From Nanobdellota archaeon (GTDB taxonomy: Archaea > Nanobdellota > Nanobdellia > Parvarchaeales > Parvarchaeaceae), in contig JAJZWM010000001.1 in assembly GCA_021846665.1 (NCBI GenBank), positions 13,598 through 77,597 of the forward strand: DNA of 64,000 nucleotides, in the 5' to 3' direction. The notes beneath the pieces are model-generated. The model was not told where the DNA came from, searched no databases, and worked only from the letters and a program-made list of their open reading frames with translations. The translations under genes and the position numbers were made by a program. This document shows, piece after piece, positions 1-55,700 of the stretch (position 1 is the stretch's first letter; every line of letters starts with the position of its first letter).

Positions 1-2319
1 ATTACCAGAATCAGAATGTACAAGCAAAGCATTAGAAGTTCTTACAACATTGTTTGGAATACCAGATCCAGGATCATATATCCACATTCCCAATAAAGAA
101 TTATTAAAAGGACCATTTTCATAGCCTTGAGCTGATGAGAAAAGAGATTCTATAGGGATAGGATTTAAAGGGTAACCCTTATCAAATACATACATGTTGG
201 TATCAAAATTATTATTGTAATTTACCTGTATTACTCCAGTAGTGGCTGACATAGAAGAAAGAAAGTCCTGATATAACTCATAGGTTATACTTTCACTATT
301 TTCAGAGTTATAAAAGATAGTGCTTAAATTATTATTTCCATATAATGCAACAAGATATGGATCTTTTATTTTTGTGTTACCTACATTTTTAACAGTTATA
401 ACAAGATTAACCGAAGAAGAATTTGCATTAAATTCTGGACAATTTGTACCTATATCCTGAAGGAAAAGAGTAGAATCGGCTTCTGGATTAGATGGATTTT
501 TCTGTCCCTTAAATAAACCACAGTAATCACCAGCATTATTAGCTACGTAGATTGAATTAATCCAAGCATCTGTAACGTTCTGTGCATGTATTCCTGTTGA
601 AGTACATTTTATGTTATTTGCAAATATTCCATCCTCAAAATTTAGATACTGACTTGCACTTTTACTAAAACAGTTTGTATTGTTGAAAAAAGCATTACAA
701 GTTCCAATTGCAGTTGTGTAATTTTCAGATACAGTTGAGGGTATTATTCTAGTATAACTTGGTGAAGTATAAACTCCACTATTAGTATTAAAGTTTTCTC
801 CATAAAAGCAAAAACTATTCAAAGCAGTCAATGTAAAACTATTCTCAGGAGAAGAACTTGAATAACCCGGAGTAAATGAAGCGTTATACAACTGATTATT
901 CTTTAGATTATTTGATAACCATAACCTCTCATAAGAAATATTATTTATTGTCGATGGATTTTCAAAAGTGCAGCTACTTAATGTATTACCAGTACTAGAA
1001 TTCCAGGCACATATAGGGAATATACCATCAGTCCTAAACTGAAGGTAGATACCATTGTCATAATTAGGATAGTAAACTCCTTCCAGATCTGGAGAGGTAA
1101 AAGTATCTGCAGTTTGAGTGGTTATTACATCTTGTCCATATCTTAAACATGCACCGTGTGGGCCTTCTTCAGTACATATAGTTTGAGATCTAGAGGTATT
1201 TAATAATGAGGAAATACCTTTATTTGAGACATAAATTTCAACATTTGTAGAGTTACCTCCATAATAAGATAGAGATAGCGGGGTTAAAAAATCTGTAGAA
1301 ACGTTTAGGTATTGGATATCTCCGTTATTTCCTTTAGGAAACTGAGCATAATCAACAGATGGCATAGTATACCTAAAAGCAGGGCTTATTGACTGAACTT
1401 GGTATGCCAAAAGCGAATTAAATGAATCCACCCATGGATCATTTCCTAAGTTAAGGAGATATCCAAGAGCATAATCTGCGCCATAGGCATTCTGATTAGA
1501 AGACGCTAGAAAAACAGAAGGAGTAAAGCCACTTAGAGTTGATATATTATATAAAGTCCCTACAAAACCTAGGAAAGGTATATAATTGTTTATGAAAGTG
1601 GAACCGCATGAAACTGCAGGTATTATCAATGTACTTTTTGGTATACTGCCAGCGATATCAGGATAACCTGTAAAAGAATTATTTATAGCATAAATAAAGT
1701 CAGTTCCATCATAAGAATGTATAGTTGAGCTGCTCCAATCTATAAAGTTTTGATAAGGAAATTTTGGTGAAGGCAATTGATAGATATTCTGCGAGCTACC
1801 ATTACTTGTTGCTGAATAAAGATTTGAAAAGTTTACACCACCATTCTTTGGAAAATTGTTATCAGCCTGTGGAAAACCAAGGTAACCTACTAAGTTATTA
1901 AATGTAGAAGTCTTTGGACCGCCTCCACATGAAAATAAAGTAAACAAACTTAGACATAAATGAGTAGCGGCTGTTATCTTATTAACTGCACTACAGGAAT
2001 AACTACCTGAATTATCTGATATATTTCCAGGATAAAATTTCTCATTAAACCAGAAATTACTTTTATAGTAAATAGAAGTAGAGAAGACATACTCATTATC
2101 TATTATAGAACTAGATAGGTAAGGGCCATTGTAACTAGATGCTAAATTCAATAAAGGATTAGGAACGCTTGATATATTTATTAAATTTAAATTTTGAGAG
2201 GGATTAATAGACAAATTGTTATTTGATAAAATGATTATCCATCTATGCGCAATAAGTATAGATAAAACAACTATTAAGCAAATCATCAAAACTTCAGCAT
2301 ACACTTTTCTTTTATCCAT
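1..2319 (-). CDS. Large secreted/surface glycoprotein, N-terminal ~770 aa (C-terminus lies beyond the window start); last gene of the giant pilin-like operon
   Basis: Minus-strand frame opening with ATG at 2317-2319 (MDKRKVYAEVLMICLIVVLSILIAHRW...) and running off the window edge, so absent from the ORF track. N-terminal hydrophobic anchor. Very Asn/Ser/Thr-rich with many N-x-S/T sequons. Start lies 4 nt after the stop of the upstream 1141-aa gene. Confidence 0.6.
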   Translation of the reverse strand, partial: MDKRKVYAEVLMICLIVVLSILIAHRWIIILSNNNLSINPSQNLNLINISSVPNPLLNLASSYNGPYLSSSIIDNEYVFSTSIYYKSNFWFNEKFYPGNISDNSGSYSCSAVNKITAATHLCLSLFTLFSCGGGPKTSTFNNLVGYLGFPQADNNFPKNGGVNFSNLYSATSNGSSQNIYQLPSPKFPYQNFIDWSSSTIHSYDGTDFIYAINNSFTGYPDIAGSIPKSTLIIPAVSCGSTFINNYIPFLGFVGTLYNISTLSGFTPSVFLASSNQNAYGADYALGYLLNLGNDPWVDSFNSLLAYQVQSISPAFRYTMPSVDYAQFPKGNNGDIQYLNVSTDFLTPLSLSYYGGNSTNVEIYVSNKGISSLLNTSRSQTICTEEGPHGACLRYGQDVITTQTADTFTSPDLEGVYYPNYDNGIYLQFRTDGIFPICAWNSSTGNTLSSCTFENPSTINNISYERLWLSNNLKNNQLYNASFTPGYSSSSPENSFTLTALNSFCFYGENFNTNSGVYTSPSYTRIIPSTVSENYTTAIGTCNAFFNNTNCFSKSASQYLNFEDGIFANNIKCTSTGIHAQNVTDAWINSIYVANNAGDYCGLFKGQKNPSNPEADSTLFLQDIGTNCPEFNANSSSVNLVITVKNVGNTKIKDPYLVALYGNNNLSTIFYNSENSESITYELYQDFLSSMSATTGVIQVNYNNNFDTNMYVFDKGYPLNPIPIESLFSSAQGYENGPFNNSLLGMWIYDPGSGIPNNVVRTSNALLVHSDSGN

Positions 2320-2322
2320 AAA

Positions 2323-5300
2323 TCATGGCCAATTTGTATAAGTTTTCTTTCCTATTATAGTTAAATTAGGGTATAATGTACTAAAATCATTATATAATTC
2401 ATTTATATTAAAGCTTGGAGGATAAGCTGAATAAGTTCCATTAAGAAGTGTTAGCTTAAATGGATTAATATTTATACACGCAAATTCCTCGGAATAAAGA
2501 TTTAAAGATGAATTATAGATATAAGGTGGTATAGGTTCTGTATTTGAAAGATTTAATCCTAAACTAGAGTAATGTGCATTGAAATTATGCTGTTCATTAT
2601 TTGGATAAAAAAATGTAAAAGGCTGACTATTTGTGTTTAAAGCATAAAAGAAGGGAAAAACTGAAGAGCCATTATCAGAGAACTTTCCGTTATAAGAAGC
2701 GCCTTGTCCATAAACTATGTACAATTCATTAGGTACATTTTTTGTAAGGTTAATCCACAATAAACCGCCATCTATTAGTGCTGTTTGATTCCACCAGTAA
2801 AGCTGTGAAACATTATTATTTGAATAGACACCAAATATCTTTAAGTAACCCGGGATTAAATAACCAAAATTAAAATTACTATTGAGATTAATCTCGAGCT
2901 GAAAACTATTAGAAAAGGAAGATTGATTTAGAATAATCTCATTAAAGTAGGTGTTATTATTAGTTTTAAGTCCAAATGAACTATTTAAAGAAGGATTAAG
3001 TTCTGATGATGGTGCATAAGCTAATTCCTTTTCTATAGGTTTATAAAATGGGATATAATTACTAACAAAGGCATAATTTATAAGATCAGAAGAAGACTTA
3101 GAAGTGGTTGATATACCTAATAGATTAATAGCAGAGGTAATCTGAGTAGAATTACTATAAAAGTTACTTTGAAGATTAGAATCTAGGTATGCAGTAAGAT
3201 TACAACCGTTGTTATCAATGCAATAACGATTAAAACTTAATTCATTTTGTGTATTAGGTGAGATATGATCATTAGAACCGCCTAGTAAAGTTGCCGAATC
3301 GGCCCTTATAGAATAGTTATATAATCCATCCGGATTTTGTACTGAATTAAATGATGCTGAAATAACATTATTTGATAAATCCTCTCCGTTAGAAAAGAAA
3401 GCACTTATGCCTGCGTAAGGGCCAGTTGAATTAAATCCAACATTAAAACTGAAATTTATAGGTAGATTTAAAGATCCATTATACAATACAAATGTTCTAT
3501 TATAAAATGAAAATTTAGCTAAATCTGCCCCACCCCCATAAACTGAAACAAGTCTATAGTTACTGCTTTGAGAAGTTGTGAAATTTTTGTTGTTTATTAC
3601 AAAGTAATCTGGGCAGGTATTACTACTCGTTATCCAGTTCTTATAAGAAAAGCTAGAAACTTTATAGTATGGGCAAAAATATTGACCATTTGACATTTTA
3701 GTGCAGTATTCTCCTCTTGGAGCTGAACTAGTGGAATTTAGGTATTTTTCCATTGTATAATTACTTGTCTGTAGACTAGTAATACAAGTATGATTTAAGA
3801 ATAACTGAGAGATAATGGGAGCACAATTAATATAAGTTAAGTTATTCGTTATCAGAGCCTCGGAAAACCCTGGATATCCGGTAGAATAAGGTGATTTTTG
3901 TATACCGCATGCTTCAGTTGGTGTTAAACTTAGATCATTTTGATAGCCAAAATCTAATGAGATGGGTATTCCGAGTATTTCTTCGGAGAAATTTCCACTT
4001 ATAGGTAAACTCTTTACTGAATATGAATAATTTGATTTTACAGTGTAATTACTCGCATTTGCACAGGAACTTACCTCACTTGCATTTATAGATAAGTTTA
4101 AAACATTTATGTTAAAATTAACGCCCGAAAGAAAAGTTAATTCCTGTGGCATCTGCTGCTGTAACAAAGCAATAATATCTTGAGATAAAGTAGAAGAGAG
4201 CAAATTCCTACAATAAGTTAAATCCGAGCTATTTTGCTCACAATTATATATATAAGTTCCATAATACGGCTCCTTTACTCTGTTTAATTTATTCAAGAGA
4301 TAACTTGTTCCCTGCGGAGATCCAAGCTGCAGAATTAATGCAGAATACCAGTCATATTTTGGTTTACCATTTACTGACACAGTTTTAAGATTTACAGCAT
4401 TTATAGCATTTGATATATAATTGTCTATTTCATATTGGGCAAAACCTTCTATTTTCTGGTTGCCAATTGGAAAACTTTGATTTACAAATGATATCCCCAA
4501 CTGCATTAACTGGCTAAGATAATTATCACCAGTTATAGAATCAGAAAGCGTAAGGCAATTTTGTAAATTGTACTGTCCTTCATTATAATTTACACAAACT
4601 TGCGGTGAGTACAATGGAAACAAAGAATACGAAACATAGAGATTCTGATCATTTGGGAATAAAAGATTCTGTGTGCCTGAATTCTGTATACTATTTAGGA
4701 TATATTTATAATAAACGAACTGAGGCTGTATCCCAAACATAACATAATTTGTAGGTTTTATTGTAAATATCCCACTTGTATTTGAAGTTACTGAAAAAGT
4801 ATAGTTTGTACCATCAAAAATAAATCCGCTCTTTGAATCATTAAAAAGTTGTATTTTACTAGGTATATTATTTGCTTTATCATAGGATATAACACTGTTA
4901 AATGTGTATAAATTTTCATTTGGCATAGGAGTTAGATAAAATGAAGTAATACCAGATATTGTATTTGTGTAGATTATTGCCACATTTCCATTTGGAAATG
5001 TAAGTAGGCTATATTGGCTTGATGGGGAAAGTCCAGATCCTTTGAAAAAAGCGCTAACCGCAGTTGCCTGACTTATTACTCCAGAAAGAACATCCTGCAA
5101 AGGCATAGAAGTAAATTCCATATTTGATAGGTTAAAATTAACTCCTAAAGGAACATTATGACTAACATAAACACAACTACTAAATATCCATTTACATACT
5201 GAAAAGGTAGCCGATGAAGTATTATACTGAAATTGATATTTATTGCTCAAAAACGGAGCAGAGAGATTACTGAAAAAAATAGTATTATTATGATTAGAAA

Positions 5301-5748
5301 GATTAAGCACAAGATTAGACTGTATAGTTATATTAGATGAATTTACAATTTCAAATGAATTTTCACTCAGCAGCGTTTCAAGGCCGTATTCTATTAAATT
5401 GTTATTTGGAAGACAGATTTGGCCTGCCAAATTTCTCCAATAATAAACTTTGGGGATAGGCACAAACGGTAATGATTGAGAAGTATTTATATAGCCACAG
5501 TCCAGAGTACTCGGTTGCAATGTCAAGCCATCAAAAAGCTCTGCTTTCTGAAAATTATAATTCGCTTCTTGCATAAGATAATCTTTTAAAGCGAGTGTTT
5601 GATAGATACTATTTTGAGCGGTTATCTCTATTTTTGAGCTAAGTCCAACATTTCCTATATAACCAAAGGCATTAAGTGTTATATATATTGTAGCAGCGAC
5701 CATCCCAAGAACCACAATCATGTTTGCCTGTCCTTTAGTATTTAGCAT
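2323..5748 (-). CDS. Giant (1141 aa) type IV pilin-like surface protein with class III signal peptide
   Basis: N-terminus MLNTKGQ/ANMIVVLGMVAATIYI: basic residue, then G-Q, then a hydrophobic stretch, as in archaeal prepilin signal peptides. Remainder Asn-rich with dense N-glycosylation sequons. Tightly packed in an operon (stop/start spacing of a few nt). Confidence 0.7.
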   Translation of the reverse strand: MLNTKGQANMIVVLGMVAATIYITLNAFGYIGNVGLSSKIEITAQNSIYQTLALKDYLMQEANYNFQKAELFDGLTLQPSTLDCGYINTSQSLPFVPIPKVYYWRNLAGQICLPNNNLIEYGLETLLSENSFEIVNSSNITIQSNLVLNLSNHNNTIFFSNLSAPFLSNKYQFQYNTSSATFSVCKWIFSSCVYVSHNVPLGVNFNLSNMEFTSMPLQDVLSGVISQATAVSAFFKGSGLSPSSQYSLLTFPNGNVAIIYTNTISGITSFYLTPMPNENLYTFNSVISYDKANNIPSKIQLFNDSKSGFIFDGTNYTFSVTSNTSGIFTIKPTNYVMFGIQPQFVYYKYILNSIQNSGTQNLLFPNDQNLYVSYSLFPLYSPQVCVNYNEGQYNLQNCLTLSDSITGDNYLSQLMQLGISFVNQSFPIGNQKIEGFAQYEIDNYISNAINAVNLKTVSVNGKPKYDWYSALILQLGSPQGTSYLLNKLNRVKEPYYGTYIYNCEQNSSDLTYCRNLLSSTLSQDIIALLQQQMPQELTFLSGVNFNINVLNLSINASEVSSCANASNYTVKSNYSYSVKSLPISGNFSEEILGIPISLDFGYQNDLSLTPTEACGIQKSPYSTGYPGFSEALITNNLTYINCAPIISQLFLNHTCITSLQTSNYTMEKYLNSTSSAPRGEYCTKMSNGQYFCPYYKVSSFSYKNWITSSNTCPDYFVINNKNFTTSQSSNYRLVSVYGGGADLAKFSFYNRTFVLYNGSLNLPINFSFNVGFNSTGPYAGISAFFSNGEDLSNNVISASFNSVQNPDGLYNYSIRADSATLLGGSNDHISPNTQNELSFNRYCIDNNGCNLTAYLDSNLQSNFYSNSTQITSAINLLGISTTSKSSSDLINYAFVSNYIPFYKPIEKELAYAPSSELNPSLNSSFGLKTNNNTYFNEIILNQSSFSNSFQLEINLNSNFNFGYLIPGYLKIFGVYSNNNVSQLYWWNQTALIDGGLLWINLTKNVPNELYIVYGQGASYNGKFSDNGSSVFPFFYALNTNSQPFTFFYPNNEQHNFNAHYSSLGLNLSNTEPIPPYIYNSSLNLYSEEFACININPFKLTLLNGTYSAYPPSFNINELYNDFSTLYPNLTIIGKKTYTNWP

Positions 5749-6333
5749 TTAATTTATCACCCCATAAATAGTATAAGGCTTCGAAGGATCTGCAGGGTTA
5801 TAAACCTGCATACTACACTTTGAACTACCTGTAACACCTGCAGGTATTTGATTTAAGAAGACCTGCATCCCGAGTGCTTTTAATGTAGCAGATTCCTGTC
5901 CTGTCAAAACCTTAAAATTACTTAGAGAAAACCCAGAAAAATAACCTATAAAATCGCTATAAAGAGAAGAAGAATTATAAAGAGAGGTTTGAATATAATT
6001 GTAATTTGAATCGCATGCCCCACTGCAATTTGTTGAAAGATACTGCTCTTTATTTGAATTTGCAAGAGCGTACTGACTTGAGGCATGTAATGCCAACTGA
6101 GACAAAGCAAACGCATTATGAACATAGTATGTACTGTACATTGTATCCAAAGCAAAATTACATGAAAATGAGACTGGCTGTTGACTTACTGCCGTTAACA
6201 GATTTGCAGTAGCACTGTGCAATAAAGCAGATGCTATTACTGCTAACACTACTGCAGCTAATGGTGCTAAAACTAGGTCCAGCATAGTAAGCTGGCCTTT
6301 TTTGCTCACTCTAACTGTAAGGTGGAATTCCAT
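5749..6333 (-). CDS. Small pilin-like protein (class III signal peptide); probable true start at the internal Met (MEFHLTVRVSKKGQ/LTMLDLV...)
   Basis: SKKGQ/LTMLDLVLAPLAAVVLAVIASALL matches the archaeal prepilin pattern [KR]-G-Q followed by a hydrophobic helix with an acidic residue near +5. Mature part ~170 aa with paired Cys. The ORF-track version (to 6390) extends upstream through an overlap with the preceding gene. The ATG at 6333 overlaps the upstream gene by only ~22 nt. Confidence 0.6.
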   Translation of the reverse strand: MEFHLTVRVSKKGQLTMLDLVLAPLAAVVLAVIASALLHSATANLLTAVSQQPVSFSCNFALDTMYSTYYVHNAFALSQLALHASSQYALANSNKEQYLSTNCSGACDSNYNYIQTSLYNSSSLYSDFIGYFSGFSLSNFKVLTGQESATLKALGMQVFLNQIPAGVTGSSKCSMQVYNPADPSKPYTIYGVIN

Positions 6334-7117
6334 AAGTAACCTGAACCTGTAATACGCCGCTGTTTTGAAAAGTCGGCTGTCCTTGTGCATTAGTAAATTG
6401 TATTTCTACGGGAAAACTTTCGGTATATGTATTTTCAGCGTAGAATATAGACGCTAAAGCATACTGTGGAGCTATTTCTGTAGTAGAATGTTGGCCTACT
6501 GCAAGGATTATATTAAACTGAATAGCTCCTCCCGTAGCAATCATAATTGCCAAACTAGAAGCTAAGCTTGCACCCATCGCAGCGTATTCTGCATTTTTTG
6601 CATATTTTTCTATTAAAGCTTCTGTCTGCTGAAAGCTTTCTCCAAAGTTAAATTGATTATAATTAGAAAGATACAAAGAACCAGTTGGACCAAGCTCGTT
6701 TGGATTTTGAGTATCAAACAAAGTTAATGAAACGCCCGTTGCAGCCTCAAGGTCTGACTGTAAGGCAGGTATATCTGTCGCTCCTCCAAAATAAATGTAT
6801 TGCATGCAAGAAAGAAAATAATTTTCAATGAATTTATTTATATTTACTACTCCAGGTTCGGTGTATGAAGATGAATATAATGGTCCGCCTGGAGCATCAA
6901 GACTTGAATTATAATAAGATATCGTATTTTTATAAGCAAAGCAATTTGGAGAAGTTATTAACCTTGTACCTATACCTGCCGCAACAGATTCCGAGTTTGC
7001 AAAAACACTTGTGCTATTTATCTGAGAAACGCTAAAAGATAATACCACTAATAAGAGAGCAAATGCAACTATTAGTATACCTGCATTCAAAAAAGCCATC
7101 ATCTCAACTAATGCCAT
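6311..7117 (-). CDS. Membrane-anchored protein of the pilin-like operon (N-terminal and C-terminal hydrophobic segments)
   Basis: 268 aa. N-terminus MALVEMMAFLNAGILIVAFALLLVVLSF is hydrophobic. A second hydrophobic stretch (ASLASSLAIMIATGGAIQFNIILAVG) lies near the C-terminus. Located between two pilin-like genes. Confidence 0.5.
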   Translation of the reverse strand: MALVEMMAFLNAGILIVAFALLLVVLSFSVSQINSTSVFANSESVAAGIGTRLITSPNCFAYKNTISYYNSSLDAPGGPLYSSSYTEPGVVNINKFIENYFLSCMQYIYFGGATDIPALQSDLEAATGVSLTLFDTQNPNELGPTGSLYLSNYNQFNFGESFQQTEALIEKYAKNAEYAAMGASLASSLAIMIATGGAIQFNIILAVGQHSTTEIAPQYALASIFYAENTYTESFPVEIQFTNAQGQPTFQNSGVLQVQVTYGIPPYS

Positions 7118-7123
7118 TTTTGC

Positions 7124-9568
7124 TCAACTCCTTGAAAAGTAAGTTCCTCCGGATGAATTTGGATTGTTCGGATAAACCCCGAAAACTAAACTATTATAAA
7201 CATTTCTTATATTATAATCTGTTGTATTAGCTTGTTGTGTTTTTGTAAATTCTAATGTTACATTTGAATAATCTGTTTCGTAGTATGAAAGATTCGTATC
7301 ATATGCAGATATAGCTATCATGGGAGAAATTAAGAAATTATCTAAAGATGTCGATGTACCAACTTGAAGTTTGGGGATACTTTTTCCAATAAAAGATGCA
7401 ATTAAGGAAGCCACTGGAAAATCTACACCGAAATCAACTTTCAGTTTTGGTTGACCGCCACCTATGAAATTACCTGCAGATAGAAAGCTGTTTTGCCCTA
7501 GAAGGTTAGTTGCAGTTAACTGATTTGGAAAATCCATTACAGGAACAGAAAAACCAAATAATGAACCATTGTTTATATAGAAATCCGAGTTATCTCCCAT
7601 ATTTTCCAATTCTGATAATTCATTTTGGGTTAAGTTTATATTAACTTTTCCATCGCTTAAATTTGTAATATTAACACATGATATTGGTGCACCATATTCA
7701 GTAACATTAAATGAGGGATTATTGAAATTGTTTGTATCTATTATTGGAGAGCCGAAAGAATCAATAAGCATCCTGTATATACAAAGATTTACATCGTTTT
7801 TCTGATTAGAGATAGCTAATGATTCTCCTGGTGGCAATAAAATTGTTATGTTTTTACTGCTTGCTTTTGAATTAAAAAGATTGTTGAGTTCTGTTTGAAG
7901 TGTATGTGGAAATAAGGCATTATTTTTTGAGCAAAGGGTATTGTAAAGCCCTTGAGATATAGAAAATGAGATAGAACCGTTACCACTTGGCTGTATAAGA
8001 GTCCTTAAATTCTGCCCTGAGTCTGCTGCAGTCTGTGCCAGTTCACACATATCATTCATATCTGTTATCAAAGGAGTAGTAACTTGTGTTGGTCTACCGC
8101 TTGACTGGCCGTTAAGGTATACCTCCCCGCCATATCCTACAAAATATGTCCCCAAAGGAAGAACGCTATTCACTTTTGTATATAAATTTATAAGCGTGGT
8201 AGCTGCACCTAGCTCAGATGATATCGAAGAAAATGCAGATCCAACTCCATTTGAGGTATAAGTCTTTAAATTTAAAGGCTGGGATGGAAGACTTAAGCAA
8301 CTAGCGGTTCTAGCATAAACTAGAAATGCATTCTGTGCAAGGAAAAATGGGATAGAAAGTAATGGATCTTTTCCACTTGATGACAACGCGACTGAACCTA
8401 TTAATGAACTTGAAGAACTTAAAGAACCTGGGGCTGAAACACCAGAAATTGGAGTTCCATAAAGATTATTTGAAGAAGCTGTAACTGCTGCATTAGAAAG
8501 TTCTGATAAGACATTCTGCTTTACAGTAACCTGCTTTGAAGTAAAGAGAATTAAAGTATCCTTTCCAATACCTGAAGGCAAAGAATTTAATGTCTGCTCG
8601 CTTGATAACAACTGAGAGTATTGCTGTAATACATAATCTGCTGCTGCGTACTTAAACGGTAATGGTGCCTGTGTAAGATATGCTGAAGCTATCTGTTGAC
8701 TTATTGATACAGATGGCCCTGTCAAAGCCCCGATTTGATGTCCATTTACATAAATTCCTTTAGTAACAAAGGTATTTAGGTTTCTACTATTAGTACCAAA
8801 CCAAGCCTCTATTATAGGAATAGATACTAAAGCTACAGAAAGAGATGCTACAGCGGTTGGTATAAGTATTTTCATACTTGGCAAAGCATCTCTTATATTT
8901 GAAAGACTACTAGAAAGAAGAGAATCCTCTGGAAGGTCTTGAAAAACCATTTCGTTTGCTTTACTACCTACAGCTATCAACCCATCAGATAATGCACTTT
9001 TTATCTTATATGATAAAATACCAAATTTTGTAAGTCCGGAGCTTTTTAAGTCGTCTGAAAGTTCTCCACGTAAGGCCGCGTCTGATAATTGAGCCTGTTC
9101 CTGCAAGATCGAATCTGCTTCCGTTGTCGCCTCATCTTTTGTGATCTGCGCAGCTTCATCGGTAGCTTCTTTTGCGGCATCTTCAGACCCGCCAACCCCC
9201 CCAAAACCGTATCCTATCATGAAACAAAGAGCAACACTAAAAACATTTTTACCCGAATCCAGAGTAGGGCCATTAGTGTATGATACATTATATACTTTAG
9301 ACCCGCCTGCACAGGTATAAGCGGATATTGATGGATCCCAAGTACACAATGAACTGTTTCCAGCTAGAGTAATAGACATTGAGGAAGGGGCACTATACAA
9401 AGAATTTATTGAAAAACCTATATTATTAGCGAATAACTGCAAAGATCTTGCGCCATTTTGAAAGAAAAGCCCCTGCAAATTAGCAAAATAAACTCCTACT
9501 AAAAGAAAGGCAGCAGATAAGATAATAACTCCTATACCTATAACTATCTGCGCCTTCTTAGTCAACAT
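7124..9568 (-). CDS. Giant (814 aa) type IV pilin-like surface protein with class III signal peptide; first gene of operon
   Basis: N-terminus MLTKKAQ/IVIGIGVIILSAAFLLVGVYFA (K-K-A-Q then hydrophobic helix). Contains an acidic low-complexity linker (DEAAQITKDEATTEADSILQEQAQLSDAALRGELSDD) and an internal hydrophobic segment (MKILIPTAVASLSVALVSIPII). Ser/Asn-rich. Confidence 0.7.
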   Translation of the reverse strand: MLTKKAQIVIGIGVIILSAAFLLVGVYFANLQGLFFQNGARSLQLFANNIGFSINSLYSAPSSMSITLAGNSSLCTWDPSISAYTCAGGSKVYNVSYTNGPTLDSGKNVFSVALCFMIGYGFGGVGGSEDAAKEATDEAAQITKDEATTEADSILQEQAQLSDAALRGELSDDLKSSGLTKFGILSYKIKSALSDGLIAVGSKANEMVFQDLPEDSLLSSSLSNIRDALPSMKILIPTAVASLSVALVSIPIIEAWFGTNSRNLNTFVTKGIYVNGHQIGALTGPSVSISQQIASAYLTQAPLPFKYAAADYVLQQYSQLLSSEQTLNSLPSGIGKDTLILFTSKQVTVKQNVLSELSNAAVTASSNNLYGTPISGVSAPGSLSSSSSLIGSVALSSSGKDPLLSIPFFLAQNAFLVYARTASCLSLPSQPLNLKTYTSNGVGSAFSSISSELGAATTLINLYTKVNSVLPLGTYFVGYGGEVYLNGQSSGRPTQVTTPLITDMNDMCELAQTAADSGQNLRTLIQPSGNGSISFSISQGLYNTLCSKNNALFPHTLQTELNNLFNSKASSKNITILLPPGESLAISNQKNDVNLCIYRMLIDSFGSPIIDTNNFNNPSFNVTEYGAPISCVNITNLSDGKVNINLTQNELSELENMGDNSDFYINNGSLFGFSVPVMDFPNQLTATNLLGQNSFLSAGNFIGGGQPKLKVDFGVDFPVASLIASFIGKSIPKLQVGTSTSLDNFLISPMIAISAYDTNLSYYETDYSNVTLEFTKTQQANTTDYNIRNVYNSLVFGVYPNNPNSSGGTYFSRS

Positions 9569-9587
9569 AAAGAATTATAATTATGTT

Positions 9588-9606
9588 TAATATTTATCCT
9601 TTTTTA
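9588..9606 (-). promoter_or_regulatory. Candidate archaeal BRE/TATA promoter for the pilin-like operon (leaderless or near-leaderless)
   Basis: Minus-strand sequence AAAAAAGGATAAATATTAAACATAATTATAATTCTTT-ATG. It has a purine-rich BRE-like run plus an ATAAATAT TATA-like box ~30 nt upstream of the ATG at 9568. No SD is visible. Confidence 0.35.
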
Positions 9607-9629
9607 GATATTAATTAGTTTTATAAAAA

Positions 9630-10335
9630 TTAGAAAGTGTATTCTATCTCACTTTTAGAGCCACATTTTTCCTGAAATTGTTTAAATGCATTTTCTAGAT
9701 TATTTTTATAGTAGCTTTTTAGTTCTTCTGCAACTTTATGTGAAAACATTTTTGCTCTATAATAAAAATTTGAAAGAATCTGTTCAAATTTTTCCAGATT
9801 ATCAACTTTTATCTTTCGATTTTATTGAACTCTTCAGAATTTGCCCTCTTTGATAATAGACTTTTCCAAGTTTTCTCATCTTTTATAAATCTTGGGATAG
9901 CCAGCATTGCCTTCTCTTTAGGTATATACAAAAATAAAGCAGTTATAGCTGGACTTGAACTGTATTTTGCTTTGTAATTTTTAGCAGGATCTGGATATTC
10001 TTTAATAATATTTTGATATAGATAACCAGACTTTTGATGTAAAGCTGCTTCATATACTTTATCATAATTTACAGGTATCCCTGATTTTAAAAGACAATCA
10101 GATGTTGTTAAAAAATAAGTTGGATTTGATTTAATTAACTCGTCTTTACTTAATCTATAAACCTTCCCTTTTATTTTGTGCGTATCCTGGCCTTCAGAAT
10201 AGGTAAAACTTCTATATTTATCGCTGTTGAATCTAAGGAATCTAAAATAGCATCCATTGCACTTTCTAATTTAGAATCTTTGTATTTATGATATGCTTTA
10301 TCTGCTGCAAAGTTTATCAAATCAAATAATCCCAT
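9630..10335 (-). pseudogene. Frameshifted gene remnant (three consecutive open frames A, B, C in three different reading frames, ~235 codons in total)
   Basis: Frame A (MGLFDLINFAADKAYHKYKDSKLESAMDAILDSLDSTAINIEVLPILKARIRTK, 10335 to 10171) stops. Frame B opens ~40 codons before that stop and stays open ~150 codons without any ATG until near its end (ending at 9820). Frame C (..KVDNLEKFEQILSNFYYRAKMFSHKVAEELKSYYKNNLENAFKQFQEKCGSKSEIEYTF, ending at 9630) opens 2 codons before the frame B stop. Both switch points lie in A-runs. Long ATG-less open frames are improbable by chance in 70% AT DNA. Confidence 0.4.
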
Positions 10336-10385
10336 ATTCACTACTCGATTAGTACTAATTCTAACAGTGTAAAAAAACTTTAAAG

Positions 10386-10457
10386 CGCCCGGGGCAGGAT
10401 TCGAACCTGCAACGCCTTGGTTAACAGCCAAGTGCTCTGCCGTTGAGCTACTCGGGC
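10386..10457 (-). tRNA. tRNA-Asn (anticodon GTT)
   Basis: Hand-folded cloverleaf. Acceptor GCCCGAG/CCCGGGC has one A-C mismatch at 6:67. D arm GCTC..GAGC. Anticodon stem CTTGG/CCAAG with loop CTGTTAA. T arm GCAGG-TTCGAAT-CCTGC. Discriminator G. No encoded CCA. Confidence 0.8.
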
Positions 10458-38100: not shown

Positions 38101-41100
38101 TTAATTTACCTGTCCATTCAATGGGCCGATACTTTGAACGGGCATGATTCCATTAGGAGGATATGCTCTTGCTATAAGCCACCTAACATAGTTATAATCG
38201 TAACCCCCCCCTGTTCCGGCTGCAACCATTAAAGTAGGATAATTAAAAGCGGAAGGTATAGAGCCACTCATCGAAATTGGGATGTTTATATCAGAGAAAT
38301 TAGAAATAGAAGAGGATTTATTAATTACCCCTGCTTCTACAGTTGTACTACTACTTACTATTAATTTTTCAGTATAAGTTTGTGGAGTTATTGAAGGTAA
38401 GTTATTAACTGTAGAGATAATTTTATTATTCACGTTGTCCAATATTGCCGGTAAATATTTACCTGAACAATTCATCCCAACAGGTTCTACCATTAACATA
38501 ACTGAATCAGCAGATGCAACATTTCCACCACCGCATGTAACAACCGGTGCTCCGGTAACTGATGAAGTATCACCAAATAAGGAAAGAATCTCTCCATCGG
38601 TTGGACTGTCTCCGCCATAGAAATTCCAAGAGTATTCAACAATTACCGGCTCTTCTGGTAATTGATTTGGAGGTAGTATATGAGTCCCCTCACTTGGTGT
38701 ATCATTTGTCATCTCTATACCATTAGGAGTAGCTACAGGAGTAAAGCTACCACCTGTTACATAAGGTGTCCAACCATCAAAACCAGAAGTATTAAGGAAA
38801 TCTCCATAGGATAAAAATACATTTTGTCCATCATCATATTCCCCATATATTGATGATAATTGAGGAGATTCACCATCATTAGTTTTATTAAACAGACTTA
38901 TATTTGGTAACGCAAAACCCATGAATGCAACATAAGATTCTCTAGGTTGTAGATTACCTAACTTCAGCCAATAATTTGTTGAAGTACTAGCAGACGAAAC
39001 GCCATTAAATGTAATATTGTTTATTGATAAAGTATTATGACCATTCTGCTGATTCCCATTTCCAGATAGAAGATACCATGCAATTAATCCAGAGCTATTT
39101 AAAGGTGATCCTGCAACGCCTTCATCATAAAGAAGAGCTACCTTTGAAGGTGAAAATACCTGATTATAAAACTGAACATTTGATATATACCCCTTGAAAT
39201 AGAAATTACTGTTATTTGTATTTGCCCAATTATTAGTATACCCTTCACCGATAGTCCAGTAAGTTGGAGAACAAGTTTGTGGTGTACCAGAATAAGTTGC
39301 TATTTCTATTCCATTTAAGTACAAAATCTGTTGTGAGGATGTTTGTACAATTGTGACAGAATTCCACTTTCCATTAGCTACAAAATGATTCGTATTAAAC
39401 GGCTGAGAACCTACCCAATCACCACCTGCCAAATCTCCGTTTTTATTTACATATATAATTGGGCTATAACAGCCTCCAGAAGAAACTTGCTTTAAATCAC
39501 CATTCCATAGAACAACACCATCACTGGTTGTCTTAAACCAAGCACTTATAGTAAATGTACCTGCTGTACCAAAAGGGTAATTCTCTGGTAGATTTGCATA
39601 GCTATTTGCGCCATTGAAATAAGCCAGGTCCCCTGAACTTAACCATGAAGGAATAACACTTCCACTTGGTGAGAAAAATTCAACGTTACTAAGGGTGTTA
39701 TTTTCAAAGATATTATAATCAAAAGAATTTATTGATAAGTTATCCTGGAATACATTAGGAGTTGCAGATGATTGAAGATTTGTTATAAATACCGGTACAA
39801 ATTCCTTCACATTTTTAGGTATATTAGCTACTGCCTCCCAGTAGGTTTGATTTGCCAGATTTGATTGATTAGAAAAAACAGTTATGTTATACAAACCTGC
39901 AGACAAAGGCTTTTGATAAGATAGACTTGCAGAACCTAAAGGGACTGCTACAGAACCGTTTATCATTAAACCTATATGACTAGCATGTATACCAAAAGCC
40001 GTTATATTCGTTATATCTCCAGAAGCTATACCATTATTTCCGTCTTTAACTCCATTTACAAAAACAGTAATCTGCGGTTCTATAGGACCAAAAGTTACAG
40101 AAGGCATAACTCCATTTGGAGGAGCGGAGGGAGAGTAATAATCTATTGCATTATTAGACCACATTGCCGTATAAGCGCCACCGCCATCTTCATAATAATC
40201 TAATTCTATTCTCTGTGTTCCAATTGAAGAGATAGTACCTAAATAAGTTGTAAAGCCTTCGGTATGCCATTGACTTACAAGATTATTTGGATTTGATGTT
40301 CCGCCTAACCAATAAGCTCCATTTCCTCCTGCAGGAGATGTTGAATAACCTAATGCTATACCATCGTCAGAACCTACGTAGAATGTTGTAGATGAATTAA
40401 CCTCAGCCCAGCCTATTGCCTTTATTATCCATGAATTTCCTGTATTTGATACGGGGGGATTTGGATAAGCTGCCCCGCCACTGTATCCTTCCTGATAATT
40501 CATTATTACATTACTTTCAGTTGTTCCATCTACATCTTGTGAACTGCCAATAGGGGAGGTATAAAATGGTTTAGTTGATGAAGACATTGGTGCACATGAA
40601 TTTATTGTAACGCCGTTGTTTAAGGCAGCTGCATACACATTATTCTGGTAACTTCCACTATTACAAGCCCCACTTGGATCGAAGTAAATTTGATACTCTA
40701 AGCCTTTATTCATAACGTTGCCTATATCATCATATTCACCATATGTTGAAGAAAGCTGCGGTGCTTCACCATCATTAACATTGTTAAATAAATTTGTGGA
40801 CTTGGATGCAAAACCCATATAAACTGTTATAGAAGACCTAACAGGTATACCACTGATTTTAAGCCAATAAACTGAACTTGTAGCTGTATTAGAATTTCCA
40901 GATTCTAGCCATGAATTTATAATTGTTCCATTGGGATAAAAGAATTCTACATTCTGTAGGTTAGACGCTTCATACTGCTGATAATTCGCAGAATTAACAA
41001 CTACTTCCTGCTGAAAAGGAGAAGAAGTTGAAATTGATTGATTATTTTTTATAGTCAAAGGAACAAAATTTAAAATACCTTTAGGAATCAGCAGAAGTTG

Positions 41101-41799
41101 TTGCGGAAGAAAACATGATGGGCTTATTATATTAAGAGAGCTAACATATATTTCAGCAACTGAATTTGGAGGGAATTGACCGCCATTACTAGGAGTTATA
41201 CTACCAGAGTAATAACCAGATAAAGTGCTTTCATTCTGCTCTGCCACCATTTTGTTATCATTATATATTATGATAGTAAAATTCACGTCACCAACTAAAT
41301 TACCGTTAGTATCAAGAAAAGAAACGTTATAAAGAATACTTGAAGGATTATAAATATAGGAAGTTGAAATGTAGGATATTGGTAAATCCATAGATATTTG
41401 TGCTTCTGGCCTACCGTTCTCTTTTACAAGTGTTACTCTACCAACGTAAGTTCCAGAACTTACTGGAAGTTCCCCCGTTGTATACAAAGATAATGATTGA
41501 GAGGCTTCTTCTCCCCCAAATGACAAAGATACAGATGTATTACAAATTGAAGAAACCAAATTTAAACCTGGAGAAGAAAAACTGAATTGCTGCGAGGAAC
41601 CAACAGCGCTTTCAGATAATGAATTTACTGCATTTGCTATGCTTTTAGCCGCCAATTGAAGATCTTGTGAAGTACCTGCTGAATTGTAACCTATCTGGTA
41701 GTATATAGCATATGATATAGCTGCACCAAGTATAAATATAGCTATACCCATTACTAACAGATATTCTAAGGAAGACTGGCTTTTTGATCCAATTTGCAT
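38101..41799 (-). CDS. Giant (1232 aa) class III signal-peptide surface protein. Internally duplicated. Two DUF2341-like modules, the second interrupted by a concanavalin A/LamG-like domain
   Basis: N-terminus MQIGSKSQ/SSLEYLLVMGIAIFILGAAISYAIYY (archaeal pilin-like Q-x-x-L-E-Y-L-L motif). Module 1 at ~aa 245-364 (PLTIKNNQSISTSSPFQQ...NVEFFYPNGTIINSWLESG...VYWLKISGIP...VYMGF...DGEAPQLSSTYGEYDD). Module 2 at ~aa 668-995 with an inserted FTISAWFKTTSDGVVLWNG LamG-like segment. Two occurrences of the PPNG-[VI]-MP-x-x-x-x-GP motif (aa ~560 and ~1215). Confidence 0.7.
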   Translation of the reverse strand: MQIGSKSQSSLEYLLVMGIAIFILGAAISYAIYYQIGYNSAGTSQDLQLAAKSIANAVNSLSESAVGSSQQFSFSSPGLNLVSSICNTSVSLSFGGEEASQSLSLYTTGELPVSSGTYVGRVTLVKENGRPEAQISMDLPISYISTSYIYNPSSILYNVSFLDTNGNLVGDVNFTIIIYNDNKMVAEQNESTLSGYYSGSITPSNGGQFPPNSVAEIYVSSLNIISPSCFLPQQLLLIPKGILNFVPLTIKNNQSISTSSPFQQEVVVNSANYQQYEASNLQNVEFFYPNGTIINSWLESGNSNTATSSVYWLKISGIPVRSSITVYMGFASKSTNLFNNVNDGEAPQLSSTYGEYDDIGNVMNKGLEYQIYFDPSGACNSGSYQNNVYAAALNNGVTINSCAPMSSSTKPFYTSPIGSSQDVDGTTESNVIMNYQEGYSGGAAYPNPPVSNTGNSWIIKAIGWAEVNSSTTFYVGSDDGIALGYSTSPAGGNGAYWLGGTSNPNNLVSQWHTEGFTTYLGTISSIGTQRIELDYYEDGGGAYTAMWSNNAIDYYSPSAPPNGVMPSVTFGPIEPQITVFVNGVKDGNNGIASGDITNITAFGIHASHIGLMINGSVAVPLGSASLSYQKPLSAGLYNITVFSNQSNLANQTYWEAVANIPKNVKEFVPVFITNLQSSATPNVFQDNLSINSFDYNIFENNTLSNVEFFSPSGSVIPSWLSSGDLAYFNGANSYANLPENYPFGTAGTFTISAWFKTTSDGVVLWNGDLKQVSSGGCYSPIIYVNKNGDLAGGDWVGSQPFNTNHFVANGKWNSVTIVQTSSQQILYLNGIEIATYSGTPQTCSPTYWTIGEGYTNNWANTNNSNFYFKGYISNVQFYNQVFSPSKVALLYDEGVAGSPLNSSGLIAWYLLSGNGNQQNGHNTLSINNITFNGVSSASTSTNYWLKLGNLQPRESYVAFMGFALPNISLFNKTNDGESPQLSSIYGEYDDGQNVFLSYGDFLNTSGFDGWTPYVTGGSFTPVATPNGIEMTNDTPSEGTHILPPNQLPEEPVIVEYSWNFYGGDSPTDGEILSLFGDTSSVTGAPVVTCGGGNVASADSVMLMVEPVGMNCSGKYLPAILDNVNNKIISTVNNLPSITPQTYTEKLIVSSSTTVEAGVINKSSSISNFSDINIPISMSGSIPSAFNYPTLMVAAGTGGGYDYNYVRWLIARAYPPNGIMPVQSIGPLNGQVN

Positions 41800-52757: not shown

Positions 52758-55700
52758 TTAACTCTCTAAAGCAACAACTGCATCATTTGGTGAAGAACAT
52801 TGTCCTCCGCCGCTACCCGTTCCTCCTGAAACTGAATATATGCCGACAGGCAGGTTTATATTAGTTGCAGCTGAGGATATACACCAATTAGTAGTGCTTT
52901 CAGATGAGATACTTGTACCAGTTAAGGTATTTGTTAAATCATAAGTTATATAATCAGGTGAACCTGCTGCCCAATAAATATTCGCATTGCCTCCCGACCA
53001 AGTAACTGCAAAATCATAGTTCTGGTTATTATTACCAGTAATATCTGCATACCCTACTGGAGTTATTCCCCCAAAACTTGTAGATGGCATTGAACCACCT
53101 GGAGGATAATCCCTGGCGAATATCCAATTATAGAAAATTTTTTCTGCATACTTACCAGCTATTCCAGTATATGAAAGTGAAGCGAAGTAAAGTGGGCCAG
53201 ACAATGTAAACCCTGTATTTAAGGAAGTAGAATATCCTGTCCCACTATTAACGTATTCTGGTAAATTACCAACATAAGAAGCATAAGATGAACCACCAGT
53301 ATATGTTAGTTCTGCATAATCCCAATTTGAATTTGCTACACCATTTTCATTATTTCCTTCAGAATATGTACCTCCCCTAGCTACGCCGGTACAGTATGTA
53401 TGTATACCACATGAATACCTATATGTATACACATAATCATCTTTGGCATAATCTTGGTATTCTAGATAACATGTTGAAGAACTACAATCATTAACATTAA
53501 CTCCTCCAGACTGAGTACCTATACCATAATAAGAATTATAGTTTCCATTACTGTCATTAGTTAAACCTAATACACCATTATCTGAACCTAATGCGTTTTC
53601 TATATTAAAGTTAGTTTCTAATATCAATGGAGAATTTGAAAAACTAGAATCACTATAAGCCGTCATAACAGAACCTCCTGCAGGTGAACCTATAGAACCA
53701 TCTAAATAAATAGCGGTTATAGATTCACCTGAATTATAAGAAACAGAAGGATGACTAAAACTAATAGAAACGGAATCGAAATTAGTACTAAAACCAGATG
53801 TACTTGATTCACCATTCAAATAAAAGTTAAAAACATTTCCGCCATTATCATATTCTCCGTATGTACTGGATAATTGAGGAGCTTCTCCTACCTGACCAGG
53901 ATACTGTGAAAAGAAATTTGTTGATGGAAGACCAAAGCCCATATATATAACTGCAGTGGAGTATGAGCCTATAGAGAAGGGAAGACTAAGCCAGTAAGTT
54001 GTGCTGCTGTAAGTACTATTACCGAGTTCTAACCATGAAGATATTATCTGACCCGAAGATGTGAAGAAAAGAACATTCTGCATGTTATTACTTTCAAATT
54101 CACCGTAATTATTTGCATTAAATTCTATCCTCTGCTGAAAACCATTAGAAGTTGACTGAGATTGAGAATTATCTATAGTTATAGGAACATAAAAGATTAC
54201 TCCTGATGGAACGGAAGTTGGAGACTGCTGAGAATAATCTATATTGCTATTTGTACCTGCAAGAACTGAAGATGGAGAGTTTGACTGCGTGTACTTTTGA
54301 CCTGATGATGTTAATAAATCGCCAGGTATATATACACTTTCAGTTCCTGGAATTGAACTTGCAGACAAAGATGTTGAGCTTCCAGTAGGTTCATTTGAAC
54401 CAATTATCACTGCCCAGTTTGTCCCACTGCTTAGACCGCTCTCTGTAAATGTGGTAACACAGTCCCAGTAATTTACACTAAATATATTTATACTCCCTTC
54501 TAAATATCCTACGCTTGTAGCATTATAATTACACCCAGTATTTTCTACATTCGCCTGAGTCACAGGCTCATAAGAAACTGTAGTTATTCCTGTAGTAGTT
54601 ATTGGTATTGAATTTGTCACTGAAGAATATGAAGACTGTGCACCAGTATATGTTACTCTCCAATCATAAGAATTGTAGGAAGAAGGCAATCCTGAACTAA
54701 AGATAGTTACACATGTCCATGGTGTAAACTGTACTGTATCGCCCATCTGCACCGATGATAAAGCAGAACTGCAATCAAGATTATCACTTACTGCACTAGC
54801 AGAATAGCTTTCAACAGTAACTACATTATTTCTTTTAAATACAGCATTGCTGCCTACACTTAAAAATGAGTCTGTAGATCCATTATAAGATGCATTCCAT
54901 TTACCGCCTGATGGCAGAGCTGTTTCAGTGAATGTTGTAGTACAGCTCCATGGATTGAAGTTATTTCCTGATGAGCCCTGCTGAGCTGTTGTTGAACTTG
55001 TGCAATTCAATTCATTCAAAGGATAGCCTGATGATGAAGCTCTATAATAGGACACTACAGGTATATTTGTCTGTAATATTGATATTGCACCGCCTGTAGA
55101 AACCGTAGGACTAGAAGAACCATCATAATTTGTTATATACCACTGCTTTCCTGAAGGTAAGCCTGTTTCTGTAAAGGTTGTAGTACAGTTCCATGCGCTG
55201 AATGTGTAGCTGCTGCCTAATCTTACTGAAGGGTTATTATATGAAACACATGCAAGATTGTCACTTTTAGCAGTTGCAGTGTAATAAACCTGTGCATTAT
55301 TGATATTATCTGTCTTTATGTTTATTGCCGAGCCTGTGGAATTGCTTTTAGTTGTTCCATTGAATGTTACTTGCCAATTCTGATTGGAAGGCAATCCTGT
55401 TTCTGTAAAGGTTGTAGTACAGTTTGAAGTGAATGCTATTATATCCCTTACCCCCGTTGAATGATAGCCTGATGAAGGTACTGGCTTACTGATACAGCCC
55501 TGATATGTAACCGAGGGAACTGAAAAATAGTAATTACCAAAGGGTAAATTGAAGGAAACGTTGTCTTTTATGCTTGAAACTATTGTTGAATTTGTTGATG
55601 TATTGTAATTTACAGTAAATGTACTGCCATACGGCAATCCTTTCTCTATGAAATAAGTTAACTGGTTGTTTATTGGTATTGCGCCACTTACTAACGTAGA

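Follow-up and report, generated by a model that had tools for sequence, protein, structure and literature searches.

A detached operon of giant Parvarchaeales surface proteins with class III-type N-termini: a candidate minor-pilin and adhesin module of a type IV filament system

How archaea of the DPANN group, e.g. the archaeal Richmond Mine acidophilic nanoorganisms (ARMAN), recognize and hold their hosts is an open problem. Parvarchaeum, of the ARMAN-4 group, is a tiny acid-mine archaeon, and a locus that bears on the problem is found in 64,000 nucleotides (nt) of DNA from a Parvarchaeum, deposited as a Nanobdellota archaeon of the Parvarchaeales (GenBank assembly GCA_021846665.1, contig JAJZWM010000001.1, positions 13,598 to 77,597; the whole of this stretch is referred to as the window). 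In the open reading frame list of the window, positions 1-9568 hold five consecutive minus-strand genes, here termed A-B-C-D-E, three of which encode proteins that begin like archaeal type IV prepilins. What do the five proteins, one of them 3005 amino acids (aa) long, do in an operon that stands apart from the motor genes of a filament? The favoured answer, given a probability of roughly 0.6, is that the locus is a detached module of a type IV filament system, consisting of pilin-like (minor-pilin) proteins and a giant adhesin and serving in host attachment. The locus would then provide conserved candidate substrates for a machinery that is otherwise an orphan in these genomes. The operon is made up as follows:

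Gene A, positions 7124..9568, minus strand: 814 aa, class III-like N-terminus MLTKKAQ/IVIGIGVIILSAAFLLVGV
Gene B, positions 6311..7117, minus strand: 268 aa, hydrophobic helix near the N-terminus, basic leader absent
Gene C, positions 5749..6333, minus strand: 194 aa, small pilin-like protein, MEFHLTVRVSKKGQ/LTMLDLVLAPLAAVVLAV
Gene D, positions 2323..5748, minus strand: 1141 aa, class III-like N-terminus MLNTKGQ/ANMIVVLGMVAATIYITL
Gene E, positions 1..2319, cut by the window edge, minus strand: N-terminal 773 aa of a 3005-aa protein, MDKRKVYAEVLMICLIVVLSILIA
Spacer, positions 9569..9629, minus strand: AT-rich, with TATA-like boxes as read from the sequence, upstream of A

The tight packing of five genes described in the initial annotation of the window is borne out: A and B are separated by 6 nt, B and C overlap by 23 nt, C and D abut at 0 nt, and D and E lie 3 nt apart. 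The raw open reading frame of C comprises 213 aa from position 6390, and the MEFH... start that is used here is the one shared by all homologs. The extent of the operon has to be revised upward, as the D sequence is matched exactly on 18 public contigs, the longer of which complete E to 3005 aa, and in close relatives a sixth gene, F, is added. The spacer upstream of A is the likely promoter region of the operon, as predicted from its sequence.

The A, C and D proteins share an N-terminal architecture in which a short basic leader runs into [KR]-[GA]-Q and some 20 hydrophobic residues follow; this architecture is conserved within each family. Among full-length D homologs, 35 of 36 start M-x(1-5)-[KR]-[GA]-Q-[AV]-N followed by ~20 hydrophobic residues; all 18 complete C homologs display [KR]-[GA]-Q-[LIV]-T/E-x-[LI]-D, and D19, P24 and four cysteines are invariant in an alignment of 19 C sequences; all complete A homologs retain the pattern [KRN][A/T/G/S]Q[IV]VI, in which Q at +1 is invariant and the -2 residue is usually K or R. 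A FlaFind-type pattern, i.e. [KRDE][GA], then [ALIFQMVED][ILMVTAS]x3, then a hydrophobic stretch of about 20 residues, fits A (K-A-Q-I-V-I) and C (K-G-Q-L-T-M) and fits neither B nor E. A FlaFind-like scan of the whole window recovered A and C and otherwise two spurious reading frames inside or antisense to other genes. The three prepilin-like N-termini quoted in the initial annotation are present and conserved, and the class III-type signature holds for A, C and D; it does not extend to B, which begins M-x-x-x-E followed by a hydrophobic helix with no basic leader, or to E, whose N-terminus is a variable Sec-type signal or anchor. For A, C and D, cleavage after [KR]-[GA] by a FlaK/PibD-type peptidase is predicted from the motif. 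As to B, nearly all homologs have Glu at position 5 of the unprocessed protein, which is reminiscent of E5 of mature bacterial pilins. One distant B homolog (locus L031, below) has a canonical RKKGQ leader, which suggests that an ancestral class III leader has since been lost from B.

The link to type IV filament biology that the initial annotation had proposed gains its support from gene context in relatives. Distant B homologs (21-31% identity) were used to reach loci in other Nanoarchaeia (loci outside the window are designated here by L numbers), and in Candidatus Haiyanarchaeum thermophilum, of the Jingweiarchaeales, the sister order to the Parvarchaeales, the orthologous module is the distal part of a single same-strand array:

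Haiyanarchaeum array, L032 2151-20495, same strand throughout: T2SSE ATPase, TadC-like protein, about 10 small open reading frames, A- to E-like module
Compact module, L031 578-8949: proteins of 374, 359, 174, 436 and 721 aa, with small pilin-like genes ahead of the module

At the head of the Haiyanarchaeum array is a 756-aa T2SSE ATPase (Pfam E-value 1e-17, 64 bits versus a cut-off of 24.9). The array also encodes a 671-aa polytopic TadC-like protein whose T2SSF match is sub-threshold, at 14-18 bits; the ortholog of this protein in L014, a second locus with the same layout, is 45% identical and has its weak T2SSF match on the other repeat half, and searches of the PDB with the TadC-like protein returned nothing meaningful. 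The approximately 10 small proteins are Cys-rich, several have class III-like N-termini, and two are PilA-like, with starts MKAQG/LP and MLAQE/LP. The module itself comprises A-like (674 aa), B (278 aa), C-like (213 aa), D-like (824 aa) and E-like (2537 aa, Laminin_G_3) proteins, and in the array as a whole a Pfam match is on record for the ATPase and the E-like protein only. The relationship is established by hhalign for the N-terminal domain of A versus the 674-aa protein (probability 96.8%, E-value 2e-10), by profile comparison for D versus the D-like protein (537 homologous columns, probability 96.7%, E-value 3e-10) and by phmmer for B. The layouts of the Haiyanarchaeum, L014 and L031 loci suggest that the module originally belonged to a gene cluster for a type IV filament. 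In the Parvarchaeales it appears to have become separated from the motor genes as its proteins were enlarged, A from 674 to 814-998 aa, D from 436-824 to 1127-1570 aa, and E from 721 to ~3000 aa.

If the module is detached, the machinery should be encoded elsewhere, as the initial annotation had supposed, and published tables fit this. A VirB11-type ATPase (arCOG01818) is scored as 1 in 30 of 30 Parvarchaeales metagenome-assembled genomes (MAGs), ARMAN-4 and ARMAN-5 included (Rao 2023, Table S6, PMC10134863); FlaK (K07991) is found in 28 of the 30 and TadC arCOGs in many, and the PilA-type arCOGs 02420 and 03871 are absent from 29 (Rao 2023, PMC10134863). For cell-cell interaction in Parvarchaeota, virB11 and TadC only were given in another study (Luo 2020, PMC7779479). 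Machinery without recognized substrates, together with substrates without machinery, is what would be expected if A, C and D are the substrates. A contig of a related MAG in the supplement of Rao 2023, PWUQ01000069, carries, in this order, diphthine synthase, FlaK, HIT, K06953, an unannotated gene, the CCA enzyme and Lhr; since FlaK there is close to the CCA/Lhr backbone that borders the module here, it may lie just beyond the window start in the present genome. A 264-aa gene beside the module in L008 was considered as a divergent peptidase and set aside, as it has no Pfam support.

The mechanism envisaged is that the leaders of A, C and D would be cut by the FlaK/PibD-type peptidase of the genome, and that their N-terminal helices would be assembled by the single type IV filament ATPase/TadC pair encoded elsewhere. 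B, with its membrane helix, would be a fourth conserved partner, and the 3005-aa E, exported by Sec, would be a giant adhesin held by the complex. Jointly A to E would form a filament tip or a short pseudopilus-like complex, on which the lectin-like modules of D, which vary among homologs, and the repeats of E would be displayed so that the cell can attach to the surface of its Thermoplasmatales host. Cryo-electron tomography of ARMAN-Thermoplasmatales contacts has revealed Velcro-like densities and pili-like fibres (Comolli & Banfield 2014, PMC4110969); that these structures are products of the present operon is speculation. In a bolder version, the one ATPase/TadC/FlaK set would act on the present module exclusively, the classical major pilins having been lost, so as to build a short thick filament of giant pilin-like subunits (814-1570 aa) that displays the 3005-aa Sec-exported adhesin and is the basis of the Velcro- or string-like ARMAN-Thermoplasmatales contacts. 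This version is judged improbable; if true, it would mean that a type IV filament machine has been repurposed as the host-docking organelle of an ultrasmall symbiont.

The proteins themselves appear to be extracellular, as suggested by invariant cysteines, few charged residues and many sequons. Charged residues make up 8-12% of A to E versus 27% of 38 housekeeping proteins of the window, and A to E are Ser/Thr-rich; Asn reaches ~13% in D and E only, versus 5.7% in the housekeeping proteins. D has 42 N-x-S/T sequons, a density of 3.7 per 100 aa that exceeds both its own shuffle and the housekeeping background of 0.72; E has 2.5 per 100 aa in the part within the window and 3.4 over the full 3005 aa. 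Sequons are mildly enriched in A (1.6 per 100 aa) and at background in B and C, so that the dense decoration at first ascribed to all of the proteins is a property of D and E, is slight in A, and does not apply to B and C.

The N-terminal 120 aa of A form a conserved domain, from which a variable acidic linker leads to a C-terminal domain that contains Cys. Column conservation in A averages 0.78 within these 120 aa and 0.49 in the remainder of the protein; the first 120 residues of D are likewise among its best conserved parts. That A might be a polytopic membrane protein, on account of three hydrophobic stretches, was considered and rejected, since hydropathy across the family shows the internal stretches not to be conserved; A thus has a single N-terminal helix. 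B has an S[PA][ND]CFAY motif and two invariant cysteines, and a second hydrophobic stretch at ~175-205 is kept throughout its family. The C-terminus of E, beyond the window, is built of tandem ~90-aa repeats (C.T.F.E.GLP.G..W.V.Y) and ends with no hydrophobic segment and hence no C-terminal anchor. E orthologs in L007-L009 range from 2663 to 3283 aa, and more distant loci give partial matches. Known S-layer domains found no match in A to E in Pfam or NCBIfam.

All five families are confined to the Parvarchaeales and sister Nanoarchaeia. Clustered at 90% identity, the A family numbers 47 proteins, all of them from Parvarchaeota, the D family 38 clusters and the C family 19. The B family comprises 12 clusters only in an exhaustive HMMER search of 1.84 billion representative proteins, and its named members belong to Rehaiarchaeum, Acidifodinimicrobium and Haiyanarchaeum. 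C is 75% identical to BJBARM4_0018 of Candidatus Parvarchaeum acidiphilum ARMAN-4, and other homologs are named Candidatus Parvarchaeota or Parvarchaeum; a literature search found no paper on the ARMAN-4 locus tags.

An adhesin role, as first proposed, fits the predicted structure of D. A predicted N-terminal helix of ~70 aa is followed by a conserved core, and in the model (mean predicted local distance difference test score, pLDDT, 59.5) two beta-rich domains, spanning roughly 145-345 and 750-1025, are predicted with confidence. Fold-search matches, which are not assignable to one or the other of these domains, predict a concanavalin A (ConA)/galectin-like lectin fold in at least one of them. 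The confident beta domains are the least conserved parts of D, and the unmodelled core at 350-550 is highly conserved, a pattern that fits variable ligand-recognition modules on a conserved scaffold. As modelled, D has a binding-type module C-terminal to a pilin-type N-terminus, which is the arrangement of a modular pilin.

A number of results weigh against assigning the locus to a type IV filament, and several of these speak for ordinary surface glycoproteins that are held by uncleaved signal anchors in an S-layer-like or "Velcro" coat, where [KR][GA]Q is the positive-inside flank of the anchor and no filament polymerization takes place. This is the serious alternative: no pilin fold was obtained, A is variable at -1, and neither B nor E is a protein of class III type. 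In Pfam, A to E have no match at E-value <= 1 and no pilin or class III model; in NCBIfam there is again no pilin or class III model, the sole match being TrbA for A at a chance-level E-value of 0.11; and sequence and profile searches of the PDB with A, B, D and E returned nothing meaningful. The -1 residue of A is mostly Ala, is Thr or Ser in about a quarter of homologs and is occasionally Gly, the A-like protein of Haiyanarchaeum has no basic leader, D carries Asn at +3 and so fails the strict FlaFind pattern, and the N-termini of B, E and F are plainly hydrophobic. The AlphaFold2 model of C is poor (pLDDT 46; residues 18-50 form one long helix, and three strands lie towards the C-terminus), the N-terminal helices of D (4-34 and 38-74) are modelled at pLDDT < 50, and the profile comparison of C with the C-like protein of Haiyanarchaeum gives a helix-only match that is not significant. 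T2SSE, T2SSF and Peptidase_A24 are all lacking among the called genes of the window, in agreement with the initial annotation, which had seen no pilus machinery near the locus, and a recognized major pilin is not known in the Parvarchaeales (PMC10134863). In addition, cryo-electron tomography of ARMAN shows a distinct cell wall as well as the Velcro-like contact densities (PMC4110969), and S-layer-like proteins are among the listed components of archaeal type IV pilus loci.

Against such a coat, Q at +1 and Gly or Ala at -1 are almost invariant in D and C over about 40-50% divergence, a constraint that would be needless for an anchor flank. The orthologous module is located inside a T2SSE/TadC/pilin gene array, and the Parvarchaeales keep the peptidase and the ATPase, yet 29 of 30 genomes have no recognized annotated substrates for them. 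Moreover, the lack of a C-terminal anchor in E is at odds with an anchored coat. A coat of uncleaved glycoproteins is accordingly regarded as somewhat unlikely.

A second alternative accepts the class III signals and gives them another purpose. In the Sulfolobus bindosome, class III signal peptides are found on sugar-binding proteins, and by analogy the signals here could tether lectin-like or other binding proteins in a short surface structure, whose purpose would be to scavenge sugars or glycoconjugates and not to attach the cell to a host. The two systems would have in common the use of the prepilin pathway for surface display of large non-filament proteins. Class III signals on large proteins other than pilins are common across archaea (preprint 10.64898/2026.04.22.720090), D has a predicted carbohydrate-binding-type fold, and the Parvarchaeales have no recognized major pilin. 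However, unlike the Sulfolobus system, the present locus encodes no ABC (ATP-binding cassette)-type substrate-binding domain and has no transporter genes within or next to it; the sizes of the proteins (1141 and 3005 aa) and their repeat architecture are closer to adhesins than to solute binders, and the organisms are host-dependent. A scavenging function is considered distinctly improbable, and host attachment through a type IV filament complex is preferred.

The surroundings of the operon raise the further question of whether it is native to the genome. Next to it lie the following:

tRNA-Asn, positions 10385-10457, beside the locus
Pseudogene, positions ~9630-10335, minus strand: one nt deleted at each of two sites in comparison with a 238-aa gene that is intact in another strain (L004 5403-6119)

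Both the tRNA and the decayed gene noted at the outset are real, the latter being a frameshifted copy of the 238-aa gene. The flanks of the pseudogene, the promoter region of A included, are otherwise nearly identical between the strains, and the 9569..9629 spacer is identical. This proximity to a tRNA gene and a pseudogene had led the initial annotation to see the arrangement of a genomic island, and an island or provirus inserted at tRNA-Asn, bringing foreign surface or virion proteins, could also draw on the orphan status of all of the operon genes and on the related locus L014, which is a long run of small orphan open reading frames. The island reading does not survive comparison with related genomes. 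The order of Lhr helicase, CCA enzyme, then A to E is kept across genera, with proteins ~30-50% identical: it is found on a 350-kb Parvarchaeota contig, with proteins 44-48% identical, and in Candidatus Rehaiarchaeum fermentans, where B is 37-39% and A 30% identical. The five-gene module is kept in Parvarchaeum-like, Acidifodinimicrobium and Rehaiarchaeum genomes and in more distant Nanoarchaeia, and in other lineages it is sometimes set in a different neighbourhood. It is accompanied by tRNA-Asn in some genomes and stands without it in L016 and L009. No copy of the tRNA-Asn sequence was found at the far end of the cluster, no integrase is among the called genes, and the GC content of the operon (0.31-0.37) falls within the window range of 0.29-0.37. 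The B family has no match in IMG/VR, and the small open reading frames of L014 and L032 are pilin-like and lie beside a T2SSE ATPase. The locus is vertically inherited and is not a genomic island, and insertion of foreign DNA at the tRNA is hardly credible. A viral origin was likewise considered and rejected, given the IMG/VR result for B and the pilin-like nature of the small reading frames in L014 and L026.

A native minor-pilin and adhesin module invites comparison with known systems. In bacteria, FimU-PilVWXE-PilY1 is the minor-pilin priming and tip complex that carries the PilY1 adhesin, and GspH-K form the tip of the type II secretion system. By analogy, the present operon would combine about four proteins with a pilin-like helix and one very large Sec-exported non-pilin, and an adhesin would be presented at the filament tip, as proposed for the complex here. 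Unlike the PilY1 system, E has no match to PilY1/Neisseria_PilC or DUF2341 in Pfam at E-value <= 1, B has no leader, and the operon lies apart from the motor genes. Modular type IV pilins are represented by PilC (ConA-like lectin module) and PilB (von Willebrand factor A module) of Streptococcus sanguinis (Raynaud 2021, PMC8179133; Shahin 2023, PMC9934059), and the largest modular pilin in a bacterial survey has 860 aa (Raynaud 2021, PMC8179133). The present system differs in being archaeal, in having no sequence homology to these proteins, and in reaching 814-1570 aa versus the maximum of 860 aa, with a pilin module that is predicted; in D at least one lectin-like domain, as modelled, is placed around a large conserved core. 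Archaeal type IV filament loci have been described in which an array of class III proteins is joined by large proteins of adhesin-like or S-layer-like type, next to TadC and an ATPase of the VirB11 type (Makarova 2016, PMC4858521; Sivabalasarma & Albers 2026, preprint), and this is exactly the layout of the Haiyanarchaeum array. The Parvarchaeales module departs from it in being detached from the motor genes, in its enlarged proteins, and in matching none of the library models scanned. Since large class III and adhesin proteins of archaeal filament loci have already been described in general, the kind is known; the novelty lies in the families themselves, in the extreme size of their members and in the separation of the module from the motor genes.

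D and E are thus candidate host-recognition proteins, the predicted lectin-like domains of D being its most variable parts, and the modular pilin idea would be extended to archaea at sizes beyond the maximum of the bacterial survey. The five uncharacterized families are potential additions to the models used for detecting type IV filaments. If the proposed function is correct, the proteins would be direct targets for immunolabelling and cryo-electron tomography, for glycan arrays, and for metaproteomics in acid mine drainage biofilms and enrichment cultures.

The sixth gene, which on the longer contigs follows E and is itself followed by an adenosine-kinase-like gene, is placed as follows:

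Gene F, L001 22425-23069, beyond the window start, co-directional with A to E: 202-214 aa, N-terminal hydrophobic helix

The sequon density of F is 6.1 per 100 aa, and the gene is limited to close relatives, being absent in L007, L008 and L009. Contig L013 (JAKACK010000026.1), with a 100% match to F, is deposited as "Candidatus Micrarchaeota archaeon", and all other relatives are labelled Parvarchaeota; the Micrarchaeota label probably reflects an error in taxonomic naming or in binning.

The remainder of the window is housekeeping in character, with the Lhr helicase, the CCA enzyme, a ribosomal protein cluster, SecY, aminoacyl-tRNA synthetases and PolD, and it includes two further giant surface proteins. 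The first (38101-41799, minus strand) is an Asn-rich protein of 1232 aa that begins MQIGSKSQ/SSLEYLLVMGIAIFILGAAI, a class III look-alike of the QxSxE type; it matches Laminin_G_3 (E-value 2e-14) and, weakly and below threshold, DUF2341, a domain noted in PilY-like adhesins of archaeal type IV pilus loci. The second (52758-56165, minus strand) is an orphan of 1135 aa with the class III-like N-terminus ...SKGRSAQ/AALDYLMSWGWVLIIIVLVL. Residues 129-587 of the orphan share homology with the repeats at the C-terminus of E (E-value 1e-24), and another module is shared between the 1135-aa and 1232-aa proteins (E-value 6e-31). These pairwise shared modules indicate that the giant surface proteins are built from shuffled modules.

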